Shown here in pieces: positions 4,885-5,418 of a stretch of 8,520 nucleotides of DNA. Every line of letters starts with the position of its first letter. Position 1 is the first letter of the stretch. The notes under the pieces were generated by a model. That model was not told the origin of the DNA. It saw only the letters and a list, made by a program, of their open reading frames with translations, and did no database searches. Location: the IMG/VR virus record IMGVR_UViG_2534681654_000003, positions 1-8,520 of that record; one strand, given 5' to 3'. Position numbers and translations under genes: made by a program. This DNA comes from a virus (taxonomy: Duplodnaviria; Heunggongvirae; Uroviricota; Caudoviricetes).

Positions 4885-5418
4885 ATGCAAACCAAAAGCT
4901 ACACCATCAAAGCATTTCAGGACTTCTTACAGATGCTTCCTGAGCTTGGTATCGTCAATGATGCTACAGCCCGCAATCTCCGTGACTCTTCCCTGCGCCT
5001 TCTTACTGTTCTTGGGTCGGATTTCACCGATGCCGATATCCGTGATTATAGCGTTGCCAACTTAGCAAGTTCGTACGCAGACTCAGCAGAAAGCAAACCC
5101 TCTGAATCATCTTTGCAGGCATACAAAAGCCGGATGCAAAGTGCTATTGATAAATTTATCTCCTACCAGAATGGTGAGATTAATGTGTCAGTTGGTGATG
5201 TAAATAAAAAAAAGGAGCGTAAAAAGATGGCACCTAAGAAGAAGGCGGTAGCTGACGTACAGGTTGGTGTAAAAACATTTGAACTGCCGATTCCATTGCG
5301 CGGAGATCTTATCGTCACCATTGGCAACCTGCCTCGCGACCTGACAAAAGATGAAGCCAAGCGTATCAGTCTGATTGTGGAATCTTTTGCGATGATTGAT
5401 GGCGGAACAAAAGAATAA
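4885..5418 (+). CDS. Hypothetical protein, 177 aa, with a lysine-rich central linker; accessory (moron-like) gene
   Basis: Intact ORF bracketed by hairpin terminators on both sides. Contains an A8 tract (5206-5213) and an in-frame internal AAGGAG-N9-ATG (ATG 5227, residue M115). No recognisable motif. Confidence 0.65.
   Translation: MQTKSYTIKAFQDFLQMLPELGIVNDATARNLRDSSLRLLTVLGSDFTDADIRDYSVANLASSYADSAESKPSESSLQAYKSRMQSAIDKFISYQNGEINVSVGDVNKKKERKKMAPKKKAVADVQVGVKTFELPIPLRGDLIVTIGNLPRDLTKDEAKRISLIVESFAMIDGGTKE

Follow-up and report, generated by a model that had tools for sequence, protein, structure and literature searches.

A conserved candidate internal translation initiation site in a hypothetical gene of the cI–N interval of Stx-type prophages

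In this study, we analyzed an 8,520-nt stretch of viral DNA (hereafter the window), the immunity region of a Stx-type prophage of the lambdoid group. The gene order cI, DUF3024 gene, 177-aa ORF, 44-aa ORF, and N (Table 1) places the 177-aa gene in the cI–N interval. The counterpart of this position in lambda is occupied by rexAB, and it is in this interval that temperate phages carry the exclusion and defence genes expressed in lysogens. The 177-aa gene is 100% identical to its counterparts in Escherichia phage SH2026Stx1 (Traversvirus) and in six complete E. coli chromosomes. Hundreds of assemblies of E. coli and Shigella contain it, as do related prophages of other enterobacterial genera.

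Table 1 Features of the window, with 1-based coordinates.
Feature	Coordinates	Strand	Remarks
dnaB-like gene	348–1799	−	
O-like gene	1774–2673	−	
cII	2845–3141	−	
cro	3280–3507	−	
cI	3586–4293	+	235-aa ORF
DUF3024 gene	4354–4695	+	
Promoter-like element (putative)	4828–4856	+	TTGATT 4828–4833, 17-nt spacer, TAGTAT 4851–4856
Hairpin GCCTCAT/ATGAGGC (4858–4878) + T6	4858–4884	+	Terminator scan; directly abuts ATG 4885
177-aa ORF, full length	4885–5418	+	RefSeq WP_001193679.1, hypothetical protein; phrog_2602
N-terminal four-helix domain, residues 1–100	4885–5184	+	AlphaFold2 pLDDT 80–93
Disordered Lys-rich linker, residues 102–127	5188–5265	+	AlphaFold2 pLDDT < 50
A8 homopolymer	5206–5213	+	A8-to-A7 contraction site in rare alleles
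Internal Shine-Dalgarno AAGGAG (K110 AAG, E111 GAG)	5212–5217	+	ΔG −9.2 kcal/mol
Spacer from Shine-Dalgarno to start, 9 nt	5218–5226	+	
Internal start codon M115	5227–5229	+	In frame: 5227 = 4885 + 3 × 114
Nested 63-aa ORF, predicted short isoform	5227–5418	+	phrog_36396
C-terminal β-hairpin + helix (ββα) module, residues 130–170	5272–5394	+	Conserved
Intrinsic terminator GCCCCG-AGGGAA-CGGGGC + T5	5420–5442	+	Read from sequence; scan lists same palindrome on − strand
44-aa ORF	5592–5726	+	phrog_21154
N	6233–6616	+	

Several neighbors of the 177-aa gene deserve mention. The cI ORF start at 3586 has no Shine-Dalgarno (SD) sequence (anti-SD ΔG +0.5), in agreement with a leaderless pRM transcript like the one in lambda; in the SH2026Stx1 record, CI is annotated with only 189 aa and begins at a downstream start. 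The DUF3024 gene, located immediately 3′ of cI, matches the PADLOC candidate defence model PDC-S43 (E = 5e-42) and co-occurs with the 177-aa gene in some loci, not all. A literature search returned no paper mentioning DUF3024. The 44-aa ORF (MAHDVNRDDFIYEHDKPVYVRSYCRIRFGELEHVRQHFRSYPSC) lies approximately 165–185 nt 3′ of the 177-aa gene in most homologue loci examined, and this placement is kept even in the diverged loci L053–L058. No family match was obtained for it, and the two genes may form a two-gene module. On the 3′ side of N, a 121-aa ORF with a TTG start (7235–7600) matches phrog_1510, which is annotated as superinfection exclusion. In related prophages, an Nmad5-family gene follows N, replacing the 156-aa ORF of the window.

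The region upstream of the full-length start contains a putative promoter and a hairpin. The promoter-like element agrees with the consensus at 8 of 12 positions, which is under the scan threshold. A −35-like CTTGATTTG and a −10-like TAnTAT are kept at the same spacing upstream of most clade homologues, and GATC is present within the 17-nt spacer in most lineages. The 3′ arm of the hairpin contains the sole SD (GAGG, 4874–4877) of the full-length start, whose anti-SD ΔG is only −5.6 kcal/mol. Since the predicted transcription start (approximately 4863) falls within the 5′ arm, the transcript of the gene itself may not include the hairpin, whereas transcription running on from cI would stop at it. 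Most homologues also have upstream hairpins, whose arm sequences differ around a CCTCA/TGAGG core; these rest on single-sequence folds.

The 177-aa protein consists of two parts joined by a linker. About 53 homologues (E ≤ 1e-3) were collected, a number that was counted both with and without a single 104-aa fragment; the full-length members are 153–214 aa long with aligned N-termini. The earlier note on this DNA described a KKKERKK linker between two halves of the protein, and this was borne out by AlphaFold2, which places a disordered segment between the N-domain and the C-terminal module (C-module). Among the homologues, the linker is hypervariable in sequence and length, except for a KKER..[MVL] core. 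The most invariant columns are in the C-terminal approximately 45 residues (KTFELPIPLRGDLIVTIGNLPRDLTKDEAKRISxIVESFA), while the N-domain varies. The C-terminus is of lower confidence in the full-length model. The 63-aa product modeled alone with AlphaFold2 forms a compact β-hairpin and helix with a core pLDDT of 88–91, for which there was no fold match in the PDB.

Neither the 177-aa protein nor its C-module belongs to a family in Pfam, NCBIfam, or PADLOC, and the PHROGs matches are families of unknown function (phrog_2602 and phrog_36396). A functional name for the family was absent from all matches and annotated records. The N-domain resembles the core-binding (SAM-like) domains of tyrosine recombinases (3nrw and lambda Int, 2oxo) in fold only, with a sequence identity of 5–21% and no match to Pfam Phage_int_SAM. 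We discarded the assignment as a tyrosine recombinase, as the protein has no catalytic domain (RKHRH-Y residues) and only a core-binding-like fold. Membership in a known PADLOC anti-phage defence system was also discarded, as no model matched.

The feature of main interest is located in the linker. Codons N107 to M115 read AAT AAA AAA AAG GAG CGT AAA AAG ATG, and re-reading confirmed all coordinates given in the earlier note for the A8 run, AAGGAG, the 9-nt spacer, and the in-frame ATG at M115. The anti-SD energy of the internal site is in the top 2% of the 464 NTG triplets on the + strand of the window, and it is within the range of the SD-led gene starts of the window (−5.6 to −12.1). M115 is the sole in-frame NTG in the 177-aa gene with a value of −8.5 or below. 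A duplex of ≤ −8.5 within 15 nt of an in-frame AUG, GUG, or UUG, which is the criterion for internal initiation, is thus found here. The surrounding region is A-rich and unstructured, and the fold stability of the local RNA is no greater than that of shuffled sequences (z = −0.23). A scan and inspection by eye found no internal sigma-70 promoter for the short form.

To compare the site at the nucleotide level, we used the DNA of 18 distinct homologues in the 174–178-aa clade, obtained mostly from scans of viral and metagenome sequences and exact-protein look-ups; a scan of genome contigs gave three loci. Between most lineages, only 0.3–0.55 of the conserved residues share a codon and synonymous sites are near saturation, so conservation of the site does not come from recent common ancestry. 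Codon 115 is a start-type codon in all 18 homologues (ATG in five, GTG in 11, and TTG in two) and never encodes Ile. Valine at this position is always GTG (11/11), compared with 20% elsewhere in the gene, and leucine is always TTG (2/2), compared with 15%. The SD codons behave in the same manner: K110 is AAG in 16 of 17 sequences and E111 is GAG in 15 of 15, compared with about 35% (35–36%) use elsewhere in the gene. The three homologues without Glu at position 111 have GGG instead, which keeps the G-rich core. Among the neighboring codons, K113, K114, and K118–K120 are freely AAA or AAG, and various CGN codons are used for R112. The spacing of 9 nt from SD to start is free of indels in all sequences, while the flanking linker is indel-rich and hypervariable. 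One-sided Fisher tests on 11 lineage representatives gave p = 0.0012, 0.00036, 0.0023, and 0.017, which are approximate values because the lineages are partly non-independent and the gene is mosaic.

A sliding ratio of synonymous conservation peaks at codons 1–6, 173–177, and 108–111. The anti-SD ΔG is −7.9 to −9.3 in 16 of the 18 homologues, and the SD is weaker in L024 and L039 (−5.3 and −5.5), the most distant pair within the clade. In each homologue gene, the site is the only in-frame NTG with a value of ≤ −8.5, except in L056, where the next codon, GTG at position 116, also reaches it. A minor codon is fixed in a few other columns too, e.g., AAG at K159 (14/15). The exchanges among Met, Val, and Leu through NTG and from Glu to Gly through GAG to GGG keep the nucleotides rather than the chemistry, as an initiation region would predict and a protein constraint would not. 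This pattern indicates that the internal SD, its spacing, and the initiator codon are held by selection on nucleotides and not on amino acids.

Yersinia phage YP3 carries a homologue (2501–3031 in L069; 73% identical) in a different context, where it is located 3′ of an excisionase gene and a 430-aa gene and adjoins the gin invertase and tail-fibre genes. This homologue retains AAGGAG, the 9-nt spacer, and GTG, indicating that the gene moves as a cassette together with its internal start.

Taken together, we consider 5212–5229 to be a conserved internal translation initiation site that forms a gene within a gene, with a probability of roughly 0.65 that it is so used, and the gene probably makes a separate 63-residue C-terminal protein besides the full-length one. 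The earlier note had offered three readings of this region: internal initiation giving a 63-aa isoform, slippage at the A8 run that uncouples the two halves, and the ordinary codon usage of a lysine-rich linker. Comparison of the homologues favors the first, in that diverged sequences keep the nucleotides of the SD and of the start codon, with the short form itself being a prediction. Codon usage does not account for the SD and the start, where the rarer AAG, GAG, GTG, and TTG are fixed while neighboring Lys codons vary, whereas it does suffice for the A8 run.

The pattern could also be viewed from the side of the protein: what is conserved would be a basic patch, KKERKK, with a hydrophobic residue after it (e.g., for DNA contact), with the SD and NTG as by-products of Lys and Glu codons and no consequential initiation. 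The linker abounds in Lys, Lys-Glu has four possible encodings of which AAG GAG is one, KKER is conserved in the protein in 15 of 18 sequences, minor codons are occasionally fixed in columns such as K159, and KKER with its hydrophobic residue could have some role at the protein level. A constraint of this kind leaves aside that synonymous positions are fixed exactly at the SD while K113, K114, and K118–K120 alternate between AAA and AAG, and that the replacements (Glu to Gly; Met, Val, and Leu, always as GTG for Val and TTG for Leu, without Ile) preserve the nucleotide motif; we regard it as unlikely. The location of the conserved motif exactly at a domain boundary would also suit a translational pause that aids domain-wise folding once the N-domain emerges, with the NTG unused. 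SD-induced pausing during elongation has been questioned as a profiling artefact, and a pause does not explain why all 18 homologues maintain a start codon 9 nt further downstream through Met/Val/Leu exchange, which makes this explanation quite improbable.

The A8 run has a different history from the site that it adjoins. It is specific to the E. coli/Shigella allele, and the other homologues have A5 (CAG, GCG, or GAN followed by AAA AAG); a single lineage-specific Q108K change (CAG to AAA) beside AAA AAG accounts for it. The run itself is no more than chance and lies outside the initiation mechanism. A contracted A7 form is present in rare alleles (L021-23, L066, and L076-84), at a frequency of approximately 1% when estimated from the 121-aa frameshift product, which was found on about 12 contigs compared with more than 1,200 A8 contigs. 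A7 splits the gene into a 121-aa ORF and an intact 63-aa ORF that overlap by 25 nt. Because the latter retains the existing internal start, the C-terminal piece would stay translatable. Among the cluster members listed, no A9 product was present, and A7 contraction was the only change observed.

These alleles bear on the proposal that the tract is a programmed phase-variation or slippage site that switches the gene between fused and split (121 aa and 63 aa) states. At least four flanking haplotypes carry A7 alleles, and for two of these we sampled A8 versions whose flanks match. Except in L082, the tract deletion is the sole 1-nt homopolymer indel that the A7 contigs show over 1.1–2.1 kb. One A7 haplotype group is common to several samples, which indicates that at least this allele is passed on by inheritance and is not an error of sequencing, and both ORFs of the split form are translatable. 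The proposal is opposed by the rarity of A7, by the restriction to contraction, and by the lack of conservation of the tract, which is A5 in all other homologues. In one sub-lineage of A7 alleles (L022 and L083), an IS1 end (GGTAATGCTGCCAACTTACTGATTTAGTGTATGATGGTG) lies in the C-module (at approximately 4496 in L022, and in L083; window equivalent 5381), pointing to decay of the gene in that lineage, probably in Shigella. Several A7 contigs derive from sequencing runs that are old or prone to error, with a second homopolymer indel in L082 and a cI gene that is also split in L076 and L078. The A8 run is shorter than the tract lengths typical of contingency loci. The earlier note had set an invariant tract length against slippage; across the relatives that we compared, the length is not invariant (A8, rare A7, and A5 in homologues). 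The suggestion that slippage uncouples the halves is therefore borne out to the extent that A7 alleles do split the gene, and it is weak as an account of a switch given their frequency of about 1%, the single direction of change, the absence of the tract in homologues, and the IS1-bearing lineage. A programmed switch seems very unlikely, and the data fit a recurrent hot spot of replication slippage and contraction with occasional decay rather than a bidirectional switch. The A8 run serves as a caution that homopolymer variation can be present with no sign of a switch.

The same tract contains the exact heptamer of dnaX and IS911, A_AAA_AAG (5208–5214), in frame 0. A −1 frameshift or transcriptional slippage on it would yield a product comprising residues 1–110 followed by Gly-Ala, i.e., the N-domain only, with the −1 frame stop (TAA, 5220–5222) two codons on. 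As in dnaX τ/γ, an identical heptamer is followed by a nearby −1 stop that would leave an N-terminal-only product, and an SD-like GGTGAT lies 8 nt upstream. Unlike dnaX, the downstream hairpin is absent (there is no stimulatory structure; fold z = −0.23, as above), the SD-like element lacks both conservation and the spacing found in dnaX, and the heptamer is confined to this allele, with G_AAA_AAG or G_AAG_AAG in the homologues (AAG AAG in L054 and L002). Frameshift motifs without stimulators give only 2–10 times the background of about 0.055% (PMC4066793). Frameshifting at A_AAA_AAG would be at noise level at most, and we consider a programmed signal of this kind very improbable.

Returning to the internal initiation site, the distribution of the C-module beyond the clade is consistent with a product that can stand alone. 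A search of 1.84 billion representative proteins with the C-module gave 38 clusters, most of which have the same architecture and some of which are stand-alone small proteins. One of the latter is encoded by a true 55-aa gene in an operon of small overlapping genes from a GC-rich organism (L073, 359–526). In a 261-aa protein (P0092), the C-module is fused to a weakly HNH-like N-terminal domain, for which the Pfam HNH match (E = 0.1) is below the cutoff. The stand-alone genes, this fusion, and folding of the module alone in silico together indicate that the C-module is an autonomous unit.

Two further clades have related arrangements in the linker. In the L071/L072 clade (1474–1503), the linker GGAGAGGAG is followed by a 9-nt spacer and an in-frame GTG, and the NCBI annotation gives only a 62-aa ORF. 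In the 163-aa clade (L003 and L028-L035, approximately 4235–4262), the linker reads GAG AAA GGN GAA GAY GTG with a conserved GTG; its SD-like strength is inconsistent, ranging from −4.2 to −8.7 at a short spacing, while the 5′ SD of this clade is very strong (TAAGGAGG, −13).

The annotation of the gene is currently inconsistent between records: the same DNA is annotated as 177 aa on 662 contigs and as 63 aa on 613 contigs. We rejected the explanation that the 613 shorter calls are frameshift alleles, because nine of ten sampled calls carry the intact A8 allele. The number of 63-aa calls thus reflects the choice of the gene callers, which often take the internal start, and we count this choice in favor of internal initiation.

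We propose a model for expression of the 177-aa gene based on its internal site and modular structure. Ribosomes (30S) would load independently at 5227 and produce a 63-aa protein composed of the Lys-rich tail and the ββα module, without the DNA-binding-like (core-binding-like) N-domain. The amount of the short form may equal or exceed that of the long form because the SD of the 5′ start is weak and enclosed in one arm of a hairpin. Through the C-module that both forms share, the short form would most likely either assist the long form, as its stoichiometric partner, or oppose it, as a competitor without the N-domain. The A8 run arose through Q108K and occasionally contracts to A7, in which case the internal start would still allow translation of the C-terminal piece. 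Use of the internal start would mean that one hypothetical gene encodes two proteins.

A more speculative extension, which we consider doubtful, is that the 177-aa gene is an exclusion or defence effector or regulator set by its own short isoform, which would act as a built-in antagonist or antitoxin in the way that RpnS acts on RpnL. The 63-aa protein would then bind the same partner or oligomerization surface as the full-length protein without contributing an N-domain. If this were true, the gene would represent a second family of gene-within-gene regulators, unrelated in structure to the first and sited in the cI–N interval of lambdoid prophages including Stx-converting ones, and the rare A7 alleles would be natural separation-of-function variants.

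In-frame nested genes are known in phages: gene II/X of f1, A/A* of φX174, 4A/4B of T7, and C/Nu3 of lambda. In these genes, as proposed here, a second, N-terminally truncated protein is initiated inside a longer ORF, with economy of the genome. The classical examples have known functions in replication or morphogenesis, whereas the gene described here is an accessory gene in the cI–N immunity interval of a temperate phage.

Closer parallels in initiation logic are provided by bacterial genes. The internal initiation sites of ArcB-C and the rpn genes were found by Ribo-RET (10.1101/520783). In ArcB/ArcB-C (Meydan et al., 10.1101/520783), a conserved SD-like sequence and an in-frame start at a domain boundary free a C-terminal domain, as is predicted here. 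The criterion used for ArcB-C, also used in this study, combines an anti-SD energy of ≤ −8.5, an AUG, GUG, or UUG within 15 nt, and conservation across species. ArcB-C was verified by western blotting and silent mutations, while the case for the 177-aa gene is comparative, and the protein families are unrelated. The 177-aa gene shares its logic with ArcB/ArcB-C and the rpn genes without homology to either.

RpnS is an intragenic antitoxin of the defence nuclease RpnL (Zhong et al. 2023, PMC10400941). The E. coli RpnL/RpnS pair and the 177-aa gene have in common a 3′-proximal, in-frame internal SD and start that would give a small C-terminal protein here as in Rpn, and a horizontally mobile, defence-associated gene. 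Stand-alone homologues of the short product are also present in both: ypaA for rpnE, and L073-type genes in this study. The two systems differ in that Rpn proteins are PD-(D/E)XK nucleases, whereas the N-domain here is core-binding-like with no catalytic motif, and there is no sequence or fold relationship between them. The C-terminal part is variable in Rpn but is the most conserved part here, and Rpn uses an internal promoter, none of which is evident in the 177-aa gene. It has been proposed that intragenic regulators extend beyond the Rpn family (PMC10400941). The predicted long and short pair beside a PADLOC candidate offers a concrete and inexpensive test of this proposal, and the signature observed here, namely Met/Val/Leu alternation limited to ATG, GTG, and TTG in combination with synonymous fixation of the SD codons, could be scanned for genome-wide.
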